Source: Clostridiales bacterium
GTDB lineage: Bacteria > Bacillota > Clostridia > Christensenellales > CAG-138
Reading direction: 5' to 3'
Assembly (NCBI GenBank): GCA_013824375.1
Contig: PNNR01000051.1
Span: 1-43,014, forward strand
Length of the DNA: 43,014 nucleotides
The position numbers were made by a program, and so were the translations under genes. Positions 1 through 6,025 of this stretch are shown piece after piece; positions within the stretch are counted from its first letter, which is position 1; every line of letters starts with the position of its first letter. The notes beneath the pieces are model-generated. The model ran no database searches. It was not told the origin of the DNA and saw nothing but the letters and a program-made list of their open reading frames with translations.

Positions 1-48
1 AAACAGCAATATCATGCAAGACTTGGGTATATATATCATATACAATTC

Positions 49-77
49 TTGACAATACTCGCGAAAAGGAATATGTT
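49..77 (+). promoter_or_regulatory. sigma-A-type promoter of the EamA gene
   Basis: TTGACA (49-54), 17 bp spacer, TATGTT (72-77). Confidence 0.55.
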
Positions 78-143
78 AATTTGACCGCGGTGACCACCAC
101 GGAATGCCGCGTTTCGCGAAAACAACGTTAGGGGAACACAATC

Positions 144-1079
144 GTGCCACAGAATAAGCAATCCAACGCTTTATCCATAGCCTCCGTTCTCGGCGCACTC
201 ATACTCTGGAGCTCGTCGTTCGTCGCCATTAAGCTTGCTTATACGACATACCCACCGATTACGCTTGCCGTTGTACGTTTTTTTGTTGCAACTCTGATTC
301 TCGGAGCGTTGACACTGCTGCCGAAAAACCGCGCGAAGCTTGAGATGAAAGATATCTTCACGGTTGCCGTCTGCGGGTTGACTGGAATCATGCTCTATGC
401 CGTGCTGCAGAATATAGCGATGCAATGGACGTCCGCCTCCAGCGCTACGCTGATCATCGCGTCCTATCCGATCATAACGCTTTTGCTGGAAAGCTTGATC
501 TACAAGACAAAACTCAACGCAATCCGGATCGTCGCGATCCTGATTGCCATCATCGGTGTAGTTATCCTGTCCTATGTCAAGGCGGAGTCCCGATTGGAGG
601 GCGAGTTACTTGGCATCCTGCTGCTCGTCGCTGCAGGCGTTGTCTGGGCTGTCTATAACTTTATGACAAAGAAGGTAATTAATCGCTACCCGCCGATCAC
701 GCTGCTCTTTTACACGACGCTGTTCGGGACGGTCTTTATGGCGCCTCTTGCGCTGCTCGAACGAGCGCAGTGGCAGGCGCCAACACTGATTTCATTCTCT
801 ATGATGATGTTTCTCGGTGTGTTTTGTTCCGTGCTTGCTTTCCTGCTCTACAATCGGGGATTAAAGACCATGACTCCGAGTGTAGTGACGTCTATGCTTA
901 ACCTCATGCCGATCTTTGGCGTGTTTTTCTCCTGGATTTTGCTGGGAGAACAAGTTACAATGCGCAAGTTTATCGGCGGAGCGATCGTTATCATCGGTGT
1001 TATGTTAAGCGTGCAAAAGAATAAGACTGATCCAGCGGTAGCAACTGCAACGGAAACCGCAGCGGAAATACAACGATGA
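144..1079 (+). CDS. DMT/EamA family transporter
   Basis: 311 aa, about 10 hydrophobic helices in two EamA-like repeats (LILWSSSFVAIK...RFFVA; LLNLMPIFGVFFSWILLGE); GTG start after AGGGG. Confidence 0.85.
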   Translation: MPQNKQSNALSIASVLGALILWSSSFVAIKLAYTTYPPITLAVVRFFVATLILGALTLLPKNRAKLEMKDIFTVAVCGLTGIMLYAVLQNIAMQWTSASSATLIIASYPIITLLLESLIYKTKLNAIRIVAILIAIIGVVILSYVKAESRLEGELLGILLLVAAGVVWAVYNFMTKKVINRYPPITLLFYTTLFGTVFMAPLALLERAQWQAPTLISFSMMMFLGVFCSVLAFLLYNRGLKTMTPSVVTSMLNLMPIFGVFFSWILLGEQVTMRKFIGGAIVIIGVMLSVQKNKTDPAVATATETAAEIQR

Positions 1080-1294
1080 ATAAACTCGGAAGACGCATTG
1101 CAAGAAGAACCAAATACGGGATAGTGAAACACCTGCACGCATAAAGTTGCTTTTTCGGGCACAATGTATATAATAGAAAAAGCTTTAGAAGTTCGGCACG
1201 CATGCAATGAATCTGGAGATCTATACCAAACATCCGGTACGTATAAAAAAACCTTTTGCGAAATGATCGGATAAATTCTCGGGGGTATACTGTT

Positions 1295-2095
1295 ATGCAG
1301 ACAAATCATTCAAAATCTATCCGCAGGCTGACAGCGGCAGGCGTGCTCGCGGCGGCAATCGTGCTGCTCACGACGCTCGTTTCACTACCGATGCCCGGCG
1401 GACTCGGCTATATTAACCTCGGCGATGTGGGCGTACTGCTCGCGGGCATGATGCTCGGCGGCGGTTGGGGTGCGCTCTGCGCGGGCGCGGCATCTGCGCT
1501 GGCAGATGTGCTGCTCGGCTATACCGTCTATGCGCCGGCGACGTTTATCATCAAAGGACTGGTCGCACTGGTGGCGGGGCTGTTGTTTGCAAGAACACAG
1601 AAGAAGATTCGCTTTGCCGCGCTGTATCCCGCCGCGCTGATCGTACCCGTAGGTTATTTCTTCTATGAAGTGATGCTTTATGGCGTGGCAAGCGCGATTC
1701 CGAATATTCTGTTCAACACCATGCAGTGCTTGATCGGCGCGGTGATAGCGACTGTACTGGGATTGATGCTCTCGAAAAGCAAACTGTTTATGAAAGAAAC
1801 AGCAAACACAGCTATTTGCGCTGAGATTCTCCGCGAACCCAAGCATGGACCGGACGTTGTACTGATCGCAACCCGCGCACAGGCAGAGTTGATCAAGAAA
1901 GCAGGGGACATGCTCTCTGTACAGGGAATTATGGCGCGAATCGTGGTAGTCGATGATTTTGCTACATTTGAGCAGCTGCCTGCGATTCAGCGTGAACAGT
2001 TCCTGCCGGAAGGGAAGACGTTCGTTCGCGTTGATGATCCAGACACTACGCCGAAAGCAATTATGCTAGCGGCTGTTGAGGCGAAAGAACAGTAG
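1295..2095 (+). CDS. ECF transporter S component with C-terminal transketolase-C-like domain
   Basis: N-terminal LPMPGGLGYINLGD...ASALADVLLGYTVYAPATFIIKG is typical of ECF S-components; ATG 1295 follows GGGGG; about 90 aa soluble C-terminal extension. Confidence 0.8.
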   Translation: MQTNHSKSIRRLTAAGVLAAAIVLLTTLVSLPMPGGLGYINLGDVGVLLAGMMLGGGWGALCAGAASALADVLLGYTVYAPATFIIKGLVALVAGLLFARTQKKIRFAALYPAALIVPVGYFFYEVMLYGVASAIPNILFNTMQCLIGAVIATVLGLMLSKSKLFMKETANTAICAEILREPKHGPDVVLIATRAQAELIKKAGDMLSVQGIMARIVVVDDFATFEQLPAIQREQFLPEGKTFVRVDDPDTTPKAIMLAAVEAKEQ

Positions 2096-2161
2096 CTCTA
2101 TTTATATGGCTGTTAAATATACGGCTAGTAAATAACTAAAAATTAAGATTGCTTATATTTG

Positions 2162-2203
2162 GCATGCGGAGCGAAAGAGGCTCCGCATGCTTTTTGCTTT
2201 TTT
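2162..2203 (+). terminator. intrinsic terminator
   Basis: GCATGCGGAGC / GCTCCGCATGC stem followed by T-tracts. Confidence 0.85.
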
Positions 2204-2258
2204 TGCCTTGTTCCGTTCATAATCAATGCTCCAATTCTGTAGTCTAGGCGATGGATTA

Positions 2259-2316
2259 ACACCATATGTTGTATGTGTCGGATTAATATTGAACAATGTA
2301 TTACAATATTTAGTTT
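2259..2316. promoter_or_regulatory. tandem NrdR-box-like motifs
   Basis: ACACCATATGTTGTAT (2259-2274) and TTACAATATTTAGTTT (2301-2316) match acaCwAtATaTwGtgt and start 42 bp apart. Confidence 0.4.
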
Positions 2317-2320
2317 GCTA

Positions 2321-2349
2321 TTGCAAATTGCCTGCGCTTTCCATAGAAT
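2321..2349 (+). promoter_or_regulatory. sigma-A-type promoter
   Basis: TTGCAA-17 bp-TAGAAT, then AGGAG RBS before ATG 2369. Confidence 0.6.
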
Positions 2350-2368
2350 TTCTATTTAGGAGAACGCT

Positions 2369-4084
2369 ATGAATACGAACGAATACGGCAACCTCCAAAA
2401 CAAAAAAACATCGGCGGATTCGGGGCTATACGGCAACGGATCCGCTTATCGTACTGTTCCGGCAGCGGGCGGCGCCTACGGCGCGAACAGCTACGTGCAG
2501 CGGAACACAGCGCAGGATTCTTATCGGACGCCTGCACAGCCGCGTGCGGCGTATGATTTCGCGCAGTATGGCAATGCGCCGCGGCAGACCGGGTACGCTC
2601 CCGCAAACAATGCTTATCAGCAGCGGACGAGTCAGTCGACTTTGCAGAACGGCCGCGTTCACGCGCCTGGCAGTCACAGCCACCGCATCAACCACAATCC
2701 GTCTACACAAAACGGCAACGGCGCAAAGACCCCAGTCAACGGAAACAGAGTGAAAGCCAACGGCAACGGCGGCTCCGGCAACGGCGGAAACGGAAACGGC
2801 GGTAGAGGCACCGGAAACGGCAATGGTTATGGCAACGGAAACGGGAACGGCAATGGAAACGGCAAGAAGCCGATCAAGAAGAAGACGCTGAAACAACGAA
2901 TAATTACTTGGCTCAAAAAAGCACTGCGTTCCGTCTATCTGTTTGGCAAGACTGTCTCCGCCTGGTTTAAGAAGACGTTTGCGAAGTTCAACAAACTGGA
3001 AAAACCGATCCGCATCTTCCTTGCAAGCGCGGCTGGTTTCGTTTTCGTTTCAATGGTAGTCATCATCGCTGTCTCCGGCACACGGCATCAGCGCGAAGAG
3101 GCCATTCAGGCAGAGCTCTCGATGGCGACACCCATGCCGACCATCGCACCGACGGCAACCCCGGAACCCACGCCGAGCCCAACGCCGGAAATCCGGATTG
3201 AGAAGGGCGCGGAGGGCGAGGACGTCATGGCGCTGCAAAAGCGGCTCATGGAGCTTGGCTATCTCGCGATTGACGAACCGACCAGCTACTTCGGCCATGC
3301 AACCAAAGAAGCTGTGAAGCTCTTCCAGCGGCAGCATGAGCTGCAACAGGACGGCATTTGCGGCAATGAAACGATCACGATGATCTATGCGGAAGACGCG
3401 AAACCATACGTCATGACGGAGGGAGCGGAAGGCGACGATATCAAGTCCTTCCAGGAGCAGCTCGTCGAACTTGGGTATCTGGAAGACAATCAGGTTACCG
3501 GCTATTACGGTACGGACACCGTGGAAGCGGTCACCAAATTCCAGAACCGCAACCACCTGACCAAAGACGGAAAAGCGGGTGAACAGACGCTCGAAGCAAT
3601 CAACTCGCCGGATGCGCGCGTTTCCTACACTAGAGAGCAGGAGATCATTAAAGAAAAGAAAAAACAGGCGGCTCTCGCGAGGGCTTCTTCCGCGGAAGGC
3701 CGTATCGATAAGCTCATCAACGCCGCGAGAAAACAGCTCGGAGACACCTATATTCTCGGCAAGAGCGGTCCGGATTCGTTCGACTGTTCGGGTCTCGTAG
3801 TTTATTGCCTGAGACAGGCAAACGTATACACCCGCCGCCTCAACGCCGCAGGCTTAAGCAAGACGACAAGCTGGACCAAGGTGTCCGATCTGGACAATGT
3901 CAAACGCGGCGACCTGCTGTTCTTTAAGTCGGACGACAGCAGCACCATCGGTCACGTCGGCATCTATATCGGCGGCGGCGAAATGATCGACGCATCGTCG
4001 GCAAACGGCAAGGTTGTGCGTAGAAGCGCAAAGAGCAGCTACTGGCGCAGAAACTTCGTCGTCGCAAGGCGGCCCATCGAGTAA
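2369..4084 (+). CDS. membrane-anchored peptidoglycan-binding NlpC/P60 (C40) endopeptidase
   Basis: Low-complexity N-terminus, one TM helix, Pro/Thr linker, two PG_binding_1-like repeats (GEDVMALQKRLMELGY...FQRQHELQQDG), C-terminal FDCSGLV and GHVGIY motifs. Confidence 0.88.
   Translation: MNTNEYGNLQNKKTSADSGLYGNGSAYRTVPAAGGAYGANSYVQRNTAQDSYRTPAQPRAAYDFAQYGNAPRQTGYAPANNAYQQRTSQSTLQNGRVHAPGSHSHRINHNPSTQNGNGAKTPVNGNRVKANGNGGSGNGGNGNGGRGTGNGNGYGNGNGNGNGNGKKPIKKKTLKQRIITWLKKALRSVYLFGKTVSAWFKKTFAKFNKLEKPIRIFLASAAGFVFVSMVVIIAVSGTRHQREEAIQAELSMATPMPTIAPTATPEPTPSPTPEIRIEKGAEGEDVMALQKRLMELGYLAIDEPTSYFGHATKEAVKLFQRQHELQQDGICGNETITMIYAEDAKPYVMTEGAEGDDIKSFQEQLVELGYLEDNQVTGYYGTDTVEAVTKFQNRNHLTKDGKAGEQTLEAINSPDARVSYTREQEIIKEKKKQAALARASSAEGRIDKLINAARKQLGDTYILGKSGPDSFDCSGLVVYCLRQANVYTRRLNAAGLSKTTSWTKVSDLDNVKRGDLLFFKSDDSSTIGHVGIYIGGGEMIDASSANGKVVRRSAKSSYWRRNFVVARRPIE
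2759..2863 (+). repeat. Asn-Gly coding tandem repeat
   Basis: Degenerate AACGGN units encoding NGNGGSGNGGNGNGG...NGNGNGNGNG. Confidence 0.85.
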
Positions 4085-4100
4085 TCAGGATTGCACGCAG

Positions 4101-4130
4101 ACGGCGGCGCGGGAACGCGCCGCCGTTTTC
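4101..4130 (+). terminator. intrinsic terminator
   Basis: ACGGCGGCGCG-GGAA-CGCGCCGCCGT then TTT. Confidence 0.75.
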
Positions 4131-4166
4131 GCGCGGACGTGTAACGAGCGTGACAGAGGTTCATTC

Positions 4167-4195
4167 TTGCAATCCGCATCAGGATACAGTATGAT
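4167..4195 (+). promoter_or_regulatory. sigma-A-type promoter of lepA-hemW
   Basis: TTGCAA-17 bp-TATGAT. Confidence 0.6.
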
Positions 4196-4222
4196 GAAAC
4201 CCGAAATATGGGAGGGAACCAC

Positions 4223-6025
4223 ATGGCATACCCCAATGAACTGATCAGGAATTTTTCCATCATAGCGCACATCGACCACGGCAAATCGACGCTGGCCGAC
4301 CGCATGATAGAGCAGACGGACACCGTCGCCATGAGAGACATGTCAGAGCAGCTGCTCGACTCGATGGATATCGAGCGCGAGCGCGGCATCACAATCAAGT
4401 CCTCTGCGGTGCGGATGTTTTATACGCATACCGACGGCAAGCGCTACATGTTCAACCTCATCGACACGCCCGGGCACGTGGACTTCAACTACGAAGTCAG
4501 CCGCGCGTTGGCGGCCTGTGAGGGCGCGGTGCTGGTTGTTGACGCGACGCAGGGCATCGAAGCGCAAACGCTAGCGAACGTCTATCTCGCCGTGGACAAC
4601 GGCCTGGAGGTCGTGCCGGTCATCAACAAGATCGACCTTCCAAGCGCGGAGCCGGAGAGAACCGCGCAGGAGATCGAGGACGTCATCGGCATCGAAGCGC
4701 ATAGCGCGCCGAAGATCTCCGCAAAGAGCGGACTCAACGTCGATCAGGTGCTGGCAGCAGTTGTCAAGACGGTTCCGCCGCCTGTCGGTGATCCGGACGC
4801 GCCGTTGACTGCGCTGGTGTTCGATTGCTTCTATGACAACTACAAAGGCGCGCTCTCGTATGTGCGCGTGTTTGACGGTACCGTTCGTCCGGGAAACCGT
4901 ATTCGCTCGATGGCGACCGGGCACGAGTTTGAGGTTACGGAAGTCGGCGTATTCACGCCCGCTCCCATGTCAGTAGATGAACTAACCGCAGGCGAGGTTG
5001 GCTATATTGCGGCCTCGATTAAGAGCGTTGCGGAAACCAAGGTCGGCGACACGATTACCTCCGCTGATCGTCCGGCGAGCAAACCGCTGCCCGGCTATAA
5101 GCAGGCGAACCCGATGGTCTTCTGCGGCATCTATCCAGCAGACGGCGCGCAGTACGGCGATCTCAGAGACGCGCTCGACAAGCTCAGGCTCAACGACGCC
5201 TCGCTTTCCTATGAACAGGAAACGAGCAACGCGCTAGGTTACGGCTTCCGCTGCGGGTTCCTCGGACTTCTGCACATGGAGATCGTTCAGGAACGGCTCG
5301 AGCGCGAATTCGACCTCGATCTGGTGACCACCGCGCCAAGCGTTATCTACAAGATCGTACTTACGACGGGCGAAGAAGAGATGATCGACAACCCGTCCAA
5401 CCTGCCGCCGGTCACTGAGATCGAGCACCTCGAAGAGCCGGTTGTCAACGCGACGATCATGACGCCTTCGGAGTATGTCGGCGCGCTCATGGAGCTCTGT
5501 CAGGAGCGGCGCGGCATATTTATGGACATGAATTACATCGAGGAATCGCGCGTGCGCATTCATTATGTTCTGCCGCTCAACGAGATCATCTACGACTTCT
5601 TCGATCAGCTCAAAAGCCGCAGCAGGGGATATGCGTCGTTTGATTACGAGCTTAAGGGCTACGAAAAAAGTGACCTCGTGAAGCTCGACTTCCTGCTCAA
5701 CGGAGATGTGTGCGATGCGCTGAGCACGATCGTACACAGAGACCGCGCCTATGCAAAAGGCCGCGCCGTGGCGGAGAAGCTCTGTGAAGTCATTCCGCGC
5801 CAGCAGTTTGAAATCCCCGTGCAGGCCGCCATCGGCGGAAAGATCATCGCACGCGAAACCGTACGCGCCGTGCGCAAGGACGTTCTTGCCAAGTGCTACG
5901 GCGGCGACATCACGCGTAAGAAGAAGCTACTCGAAAAGCAGAAGGAAGGCAAAAAGCGCATGCGCCAGGTTGGAACCGTGTCCTTGCCGAGCGACGCTTT
6001 CATGAGCGTGCTCCGCATCAACTGA
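4223..6025 (+). CDS. lepA: elongation factor 4
   Basis: [29 protein letters not shown]-terminal [21 protein letters not shown]; ATG 4223 after GGAGG. Confidence 0.98.

Follow-up and report, generated by a model that had tools for sequence, protein, structure and literature searches.

An ECF transporter S component fused to a truncated, transketolase-derived C-terminal domain in uncultured Clostridia

The stretch of DNA analyzed here, hereafter the window, comprises 43,014 nt from a Clostridiales bacterium (GenBank assembly GCA_013824375.1, contig PNNR01000051.1, positions 1 to 43,014 of the forward strand; GTDB lineage Bacteria; Bacillota; Clostridia; Christensenellales; CAG-138) and encodes, in one reading frame at 1295..2095, a complete substrate-capture (S) component of an energy-coupling factor (ECF) transporter that continues into a shortened soluble domain derived from the C-terminal domain of transketolase (TKC). 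We refer to this shortened domain as the mini-TKC, or as the tail where it is fused. The fusion is kept throughout most of the genus to which the window belongs, the tail is under purifying selection, and the same module is encoded elsewhere in the family as a separate gene. We favor, with a probability of about 0.45, the reading that the tail serves in the cytoplasm, without being catalytic, as a docking or regulatory module that would either act on the transporter or bring a soluble partner to it. The parts of the gene are the following:

1295..2095, + strand: coding sequence of the fusion, 266 aa (amino acids) plus stop, with the ATG at 1295 as the likely start
1316..1774, + strand: ECF S-component domain (PF07155), residues 8–160, six predicted membrane helices
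1775..1819, + strand: flexible linker, residues 161–175, after the last membrane helix
1820..2092, + strand: mini-TKC, the truncated transketolase C-terminal-like domain, residues 176–266, assigned by PF22613 and by fold

The single frame on the + strand runs from TTG 1256 or ATG 1295 to the stop at 2093–2095, and in an alignment of relatives the Met equivalent to ATG 1295 is the start. Residues 8–160 match the ECF-ribofla_trS model (PF07155) with 86.8 bits (E 2.2e-24, cut-off 26.7), and the score against TIGR04002 is 52 bits, below the cut-off of 120. The closest solved chain is 4hzu_S, HmpT/PdxU2 of Lactobacillus brevis (phmmer E 6.3e-15), on which the AlphaFold2 model superposes with Z 21.4, a root-mean-square deviation (rmsd) of 2.2, 158 aligned residues, and 30% identity (VIA); superposition of the S-domain model on RibU, BioY, PanT, FolT, and ThiT gives Z values of 14–16. 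The invariant pocket residues D44, Y121, N141, and Q144 align with Glu41, Tyr120, Asn140, and Gln143 of HmpT, the Tyr, Asn, and Gln being identical and Glu41 being replaced by Asp; in the accessible part of the source these HmpT residues are described as conserved among different S components (PMC4860826). In helix 1, A13 and A17 of 4hzu_S have as counterparts G16, which is conserved to at least 90%, and A20, which does not vary; A15 and A19 are likewise conserved. A small-xxx-small (AxxxA-type) motif in helix 1 of S components serves docking on EcfT. On the family tests, which it passes, the S domain is classed as a group II ECF S component of the HmpT/PdxU2 type. It shares with HmpT/PdxU2 the six-helix fold and, by likeness, the dependence on a shared EcfAA'T module, and such a module is encoded in the genome of the window (ecfA-ecfA'-ecfT-truA on contig C4; a second CbiQ with a fused ATPase lies on contig C15). 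It differs in that the solved protein stops after helix 6, at 164–166 residues, whereas the protein of the window adds the linker and a soluble domain of 91 residues.

An earlier note on this DNA, made by eye from the letters alone, had described this frame as a complete S component running on from nt 1820 into a non-catalytic TKC-like domain without the FGxS segment, and profile and structure comparisons bear out both the two parts and the boundary. The tail alone matches PF22613 (Transketolase_C_1) with 29.6 bits (E 8.7e-7, cut-off 27), covering only positions 4–74 of the 113 in the profile, and the whole protein scores 26.4 bits. As a check the note had proposed a comparison with Transketolase_C (PF02780); this older model stays below its cut-off (15.2 vs. 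25.9 bits), whereas PF22613 lies above its own and Foldseek of the model against transketolase gives a probability of 1.0 (E 4.4e-4). Among solved structures phmmer finds yeast transketolase 552–616 with an E value of 8.5e-5, the yeast and Escherichia coli matches ranging from 8.5e-5 to 2.4e-4. Residues 173–266 superpose on E. coli transketolase 2r8o_B 537–665 with Z 12.0 and rmsd 2.1 over 94 aligned residues, and with residues 168–266 more than 30 transketolase entries can be superposed over the full extent of their TKC domain, with Z 11–13. In the AlphaFold2 model, which has a predicted local distance difference test (pLDDT) value of 86 overall, the tail forms a beta-alpha-beta-type domain with values of 81–93, and the linker falls below 50 at residues 166–173. 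Mean pairwise identity among relatives is 0.79 in the S domain, 0.49 in the linker, and 0.67 in the tail, and some relatives carry an insertion of ∼19 residues in the linker.

Comparing the module column by column, in 45 fused tails and 20 free-standing forms, with 24 of the family's transketolases revealed what it has lost and what it has kept. About 38 transketolase columns are deleted inside the module, the FGAS segment that the earlier note had found missing among them, and the SGSEVE and SMP(S/C) loops, which are at least 92% conserved in the 24 transketolases, are variable in the 45 fused and 20 free-standing forms. Three loops conserved in transketolases, SGSEVE, SMP, and FGAS, are thus gone from the module. 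Retained is a signature common to the module and the family transketolases, REPKxGPD...LSVQGxxAR, and across 41 sequences with 50–87% identity R180, E181, P182, K183, G185, A203, L207, S208, V209, G211, A214, and R215 of the tail are invariant. The module is preceded by nothing or by an S component, the PP and Pyr domains of transketolase being absent. According to the accessible part of PMC7661550, TKC always follows PP and Pyr in transketolase-like enzymes, split-gene transketolases included, and is not the part of transketolase that binds thiamine pyrophosphate (TPP). Because completeness, PP/Pyr context, and conserved loops all fail, we call the domain TKC-derived and not a TKC domain proper. 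It resembles the TKC of transketolase (PF22613/PF02780; E. coli TktA 537–665) in homologous sequence and alpha/beta fold and departs from it in being shortened by ∼38 residues, in lacking the three loops, and in being either membrane attached or free. Split-gene transketolases, such as that of Carboxydothermus hydrogenoformans as far as the accessible part of PMC7661550 describes it, likewise show that tkt genes can break into separately encoded pieces, but there the TKC stays joined to Pyr and the pieces rebuild an active enzyme, whereas here the TKC alone has been set free and truncated in genomes that retain a complete transketolase.

The note had also asked for the same architecture in relatives and for reads that would reveal a hidden stop at the junction. 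In 40 species-representative genomes of the genus, the tail lies within an open frame of 255–348 aa in 37; one of the others (G418) has the tail without the S domain, and two (87% and 73% complete) show the transketolase only. Of 30 genus loci that were fetched, 29 have the S domain directly ahead of the tail by tblastn. A word-index search returned 145 proteins, more than 110 clusters being full length at 52–87% identity, and the names given to these full-length relatives, if any, go no further than "ECF transporter S component" or "uncharacterized membrane protein." The junction (∼1780–1830) is bridged by contigs of three sequencing runs from two studies of groundwater and aquatic metagenomes, spanning nt 1606–1959, 1694–1867, and 1729–1944 without an indel inside the frame, although the best holder may be the source sample itself. 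The fusion is therefore not an assembly artifact. Ratios of nonsynonymous to synonymous substitution (dN/dS; Nei–Gojobori) were computed for 26 of the 30 genus loci, leaving out L035, L038, the 5′-cut L049, and L055, which lacks the S domain. Over the 246 usable pairs of 325, the S domain has a median of 0.12 and the tail one of 0.17; restricting the set to the 131 pairs whose dS is below 1.5 gives 0.13 and 0.20, respectively. Purifying selection acts on the tail. With a profile and structure match found, and with relatives and contigs alike showing one gene, the observation of the earlier note is therefore confirmed. Full-text literature searches, whose coverage of subscription journals is poor, returned no description of an S component fused to a TKC-like domain, in agreement with the note, and the sources name the protein only "ECF transporter S component" or "hypothetical protein." A genome that had been taken as a split S-plus-tail form (G087) was rejected, its S component bearing an unrelated tail.

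The sequence relationships of the tail point to the lineage's own transketolase. A scan of 185,579 species genomes with the pattern [VFL]REPK[GK]G[PA]D found ten loci, four mini-domains and six full-length transketolases from metagenome-assembled genomes of Clostridia that read GGYILREPKGGPDVILIASGSEVELAFKAADMLSVQGYTARIVSMPS; the scan undercounts the family because REPKHGPD, the version in the window, escapes the pattern. In most genera of the family the full-length transketolase reads GGYILREPKG[GT]PDVIL..AADILSVQGYTAR and shares 45–53% identity with the tail. In the window's own genus the enzyme reads YILKD.K.GKPDVIL..AADQLEAEGIK.R, shares only 36–41% identity with the tail, and retains a complete C-terminal domain. 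We extracted the TKC domains by alignment-guided choice of frame and built a maximum-likelihood tree by quick search (89 rows, 92 columns; rooted arbitrarily on the genus's own transketolases). All 65 tails and free-standing forms make up one clade (Shimodaira–Hasegawa-like approximate likelihood ratio test 96) among the REPK-type transketolases. Free-standing forms of ∼130 aa that keep part of the Pyr–TKC linker sit unresolved at the base of this clade, and the fused forms are nested in it; the order "free-standing first, fusion later" is suggested rather than shown, because the root is arbitrary and 47 of the 86 inner branches lack resolution. Wherever a column is conserved in the module, it carries the consensus of the family transketolases, which shows, on sequence grounds, that the tail was captured from the 3′ end of the tkt gene of its own lineage and trimmed. 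Because the signature of the genus transketolase differs, the tail keeps the older family signature better than the genus enzyme does; either replacement or rapid divergence of the genus transketolase may lie behind this. The genus enzyme seen in genome G000 at contig C64:9401–9688, and also at loci L086–L088, L091, and L092, has a signature unlike that of most other genera (YILREPKG.PDVIL..ILSVQGYTAR). At another locus (L070, G222 contig C57, 471–2452) a frame change immediately ahead of the SGSEVE loop breaks the transketolase gene into frames of 547 aa and 114 aa, perhaps through a sequencing error, perhaps through recent breakage.

The module also occurs outside the fusion. Calling it in 240 family genomes wherever a match reaches the profile end within a frame shorter than 350 aa, we counted it in 39 of the 40 genus genomes and in 22 of the 200 others. 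It is fused to an S gene in three of these 22 (G197, G213, and G216), and in four (G220, G206, G207, and G223) it is a separate gene 2–30 nt past the S gene; separate module genes in related genera encode ∼100–130 aa. In one genome (G212) the S gene is deleted between the GGGtGRT gene and the module, in another (G057) the module lies directly before the NlpC/P60 gene, in a third (G254) it lies between MatE and tadA, and G208 is one further genome where the module has no adjoining S gene. Five species of a second genus, g2 (L064, L067, L094, L100, and L101), encode a mini-TKC of ∼122 aa 14–24 nt 3′ of a type III glutamine synthetase gene. A third genus, g8, has the module in six genomes, and in all four loci examined it is the last gene of a GntR/ABC ATPase/ABC-2 permease operon, its start abutting the stop of the permease gene; this is a second case in which a transporter membrane subunit is encoded immediately upstream of the module. 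The g8 form is divergent (107 aa, L098 2980–3933; also L099, L102, and L103), its signature degraded to REVHEG and the permease being ABC2_membrane_5, and a tadA-like deaminase gene adjoins it, as in L065. In public data a profile built from tails together with free-standing forms picks up ∼40 clusters of free-standing proteins of 95–160 aa, which are named, if at all, "hypothetical protein"; free-standing forms match PF22613 over the same truncated range, positions 1–77, with 46.9, 38.4, and 28.3 bits. The mini-TKC is thus shown to be an autonomous evolutionary module that can be fused, adjacent, or free-standing. A phmmer search with the tail alone against 1.84 billion representatives gave 20 matches, reaching the main fused family only via P0121, and is uninformative on other architectures. 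In the ESM Atlas, Bacillota clusters of 118 aa scored 0.90–0.92 and TKC clusters below 0.9, and both serve as leads only.

Comparison of loci indicates that the likely ancestral order was NifU-like, GGGtGRT, S, mini-TKC, cysK, NlpC/P60. A cysK whose start overlaps the module stop is found in 12 of the 30 genus loci, as well as in G197, G213, G212, G220, G216, and G417, and this linked cysK is a TIGR01139 equivalog (409 bits, cut-off 351). In the other 18 genus loci, the window included, the linked cysK has been lost. Genus genomes without it keep another cysK elsewhere, 58–61% identical, and this was not found in the window's own assembly, which is 59.6% complete. A complex prediction of CysK with its cognate tail (alignments A5 and A4; residues 172–266) scored 0.00 in both runs and weighs neither for nor against a contact. 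In two independent cases the S domain is missing while the tail persists with its overlapping cysK: at L055 (G418) the tail occupies 1504–1755 between EamA and cysK, and at L019 (G212) it occupies 1108–1404 between GGGtGRT and cysK. The NifU-like gene and the GGGtGRT-family gene (PF14057, 643 bits) overlap each other and stand directly 5′ of the S gene in most genera (L017 3177–4878, L018, L027, L061, L071, L072, L096, and L104); in the window's genus an EamA transporter gene mostly replaces this pair.

Similarity to HmpT/PdxU2 suggests that the substrate is a small aromatic vitamin-like compound, with vitamin B6 forms as the best guess. Against this guess stand the identity of 30% and the fact that the pocket residues are common to different S components. 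No B6 salvage gene or B6 regulator was found in the window, and ten loci of plain S homologues show no consistent neighbor: one adjoins a MocR-type GntR-aminotransferase regulator, one is near a pyridoxal phosphate enzyme, and the other eight are unrelated.

The favored reading, that the tail is a docking or regulatory module of the transporter, takes its case from the recurrence of fused and adjacent-gene forms, from the presence of a membrane subunit upstream in two unrelated operon types, and from the flexible tether. The C-terminus is probably cytoplasmic, judging from known S-component structures and from Lys/Arg-rich segments at both ends of the membrane part, in which case the tail would hang on its flexible tether beside the EcfT/EcfA interface. 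There it may modulate the engagement of the S component with the EcfT/EcfA/EcfA' module or recruit a soluble partner, its action being presumably in cis in the fusion and in trans where the module has a gene of its own. It presumably neither binds TPP nor catalyzes. MetN C2, ModC, and MalK of classical ABC importers carry C-terminal regulatory domains, and the window's protein resembles them in having an extra non-catalytic cytoplasmic domain on a transporter subunit, one that on the favored reading would modulate transport from within. This is a functional analogy only: theirs sit on the ATPase, have other folds, and have known effectors, and here the domain sits on the substrate-capture subunit. 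An extended version, in which the mini-TKC is a transferable docking or regulatory subunit attached in cis or in trans to membrane transport subunits (the ECF S component and the ABC-2 permease), we regard as unlikely.

Several observations weigh against a role at the transporter. Plain S homologues without a tail are the rule, the fusion being present in only 2 of 201 genomes sampled across the order. The model has a predicted template modeling score of 0.60, which gives no confident arrangement of the two domains. Outside the genus, the module lacks an adjoining S gene in 15 of the 22 genomes that carry it, and the S domain has been lost twice with tail and cysK kept (L019 and L055), so that the module can work without the transporter and the fusion could be incidental. 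In that case the mini-TKC would be an autonomous small cytosolic protein with a function unrelated to transport, perhaps an adaptor for assimilation enzymes or a regulator of them, that in one lineage became joined to the upstream S gene by loss of a stop codon and was tolerated. We consider this, the main rival, somewhat unlikely. The occurrence of modules lacking an adjoining S gene in at least four contexts, the ∼40 clusters of free-standing forms, and the length and poor conservation of the linker speak for it; however, the fused form has been kept in 37 of the 40 genus genomes and in three or more other genera, the two S losses being the only re-splitting seen, the fused tail is still under purifying selection, and a second transporter membrane subunit lies immediately upstream of the module in g8. 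Persisting gene fusions usually join functionally linked proteins, which also counts against an incidental union.

The retention of tail and cysK in both S-loss variants, together with the overlap of the tail stop with the start of a TIGR01139-scoring cysK in the likely ancestral order (12 genus loci and six other genomes), would fit a module that is the partner of this second CysK, the tether placing CysK at the transporter or coupling uptake to cysteine synthesis. This appears improbable, since the tail is still under selection in the 18 genus loci without adjacent cysK, no cysK is found in the vicinity of many free-standing forms, and the tail lacks a C-terminal isoleucine; known CysK partners insert a C-terminal isoleucine into the active site of CysK. 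The earlier note had proposed a cytoplasmic sensor or docking module that links uptake of a thiamine precursor or B6 to TPP-dependent enzymes. The sensor or docking part of that proposal is plausible as an inference, but the link to thiamine and TPP enzymes finds no support here, and we judge it very improbable. Its appeal is that a TPP enzyme contains the homologue of the domain, that the domain retains a surface signature common to the family transketolases, and that the HmpT/PdxU2 group was once ascribed to hydroxymethylpyrimidine (accessible part of PMC4860826). The tail, however, derives from a part of transketolase that is not cofactor binding in the account available from PMC7661550, and it has lost three loops conserved in transketolases. 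The genus's transketolases have their own complete C-terminal domain and have diverged exactly at the signature that the tail retains (YILKD..QLEAEG, 36–41% identity). No TPP riboswitch or thiamine gene was found at the locus, and the 20 related loci have no riboswitch at the Rfam gathering score. The contexts in which the free-standing module occurs, beside cysK, glutamine synthetase III, the ABC-2 permease, and tadA, are unrelated to thiamine. The truncation of the domain and the loss of its conserved loops might suggest a non-functional remnant of a decaying transketolase, or a chimera of assembly, but with a dN/dS of 0.17–0.20, residues invariant across 41 sequences at 50–87% identity, an intact frame in 37 of 40 species, and independent contigs that bridge the junction, such a reading is disfavored to the point of being barely tenable.

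To our knowledge S components are textbook minimal membrane proteins without soluble domains, and if the extended version given above is true, the tail would be the first regulatory domain on the cytoplasmic side to be recognized in the substrate-capture subunit of an ECF transporter. An S component that bears a cytoplasmic domain under selection throughout a genus is a natural handle on how S components compete for, and are regulated at, the shared ECF module; since the domain is elsewhere encoded separately, proteins that have it and proteins that lack it can be compared, in cis and in trans. We know of no assigned function of the transketolase C-terminal domain, and our literature search for one gave nothing useful. 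E. coli transketolase reportedly stays active without its TKC, and a domain of E1-beta related to TKC is said to bind the E2 subunit. A TKC that has been excised, trimmed, and kept under selection outside any TPP enzyme isolates what the fold does alone and, if the same extended version is true, the TKC of transketolase would by extension be a protein-interaction module, with the REPKxGPD/LSVQGxxAR surface as its binding face. Practical impact is limited for now, the hosts being uncultured groundwater and gut Clostridia.

Two candidate signals flank the gene:

1281..1286, + strand: purine-rich GGGGGT resembling a ribosome-binding site, 8 nt 5′ of the ATG, proposed from reading of the sequence only
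2161..2201, + strand: terminator-like hairpin of 12 pairs (8 G-C) followed by a T run, starting 66 nt past the stop

The run GGGGG at 1281–1285 lies 10–14 nt 5′ of ATG 1295. The hairpin, placed at 2161–2191, is the one such site found, and because shuffled sequence averages 1.4 sites, it counts as a consensus match only. Contigs of other sequencing runs differ in the leader by a 1-nt deletion at 1245 and a T>A change at 1279; both lie outside the frame and represent strain variation. As the earlier note had stated, neither a riboswitch nor ecfAA'T adjoins the fusion gene: an Rfam scan of window positions 1–5000 (E up to 1) gave no match besides AsrC at 4248–4301 (− strand) within lepA, which with 21 bits against a gathering score of 111 is almost certainly due to chance, and the ECF module lies on another contig. 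The fusion gene looks monocistronic in the window, and a search for RNA sequencing runs that contain the stretch yielded none. Its upstream neighbor is an EamA transporter gene, and downstream lie a gene for an NlpC/P60 peptidoglycan hydrolase and then lepA, hemW, and hrcA-grpE-dnaK-dnaJ. The NlpC/P60 gene (2369–4084), which is syntenic with the fusion locus throughout the family, encodes two PG_binding_1 domains and a long N-terminal low-complexity Asn/Gly stretch with NGNGNG repeats.

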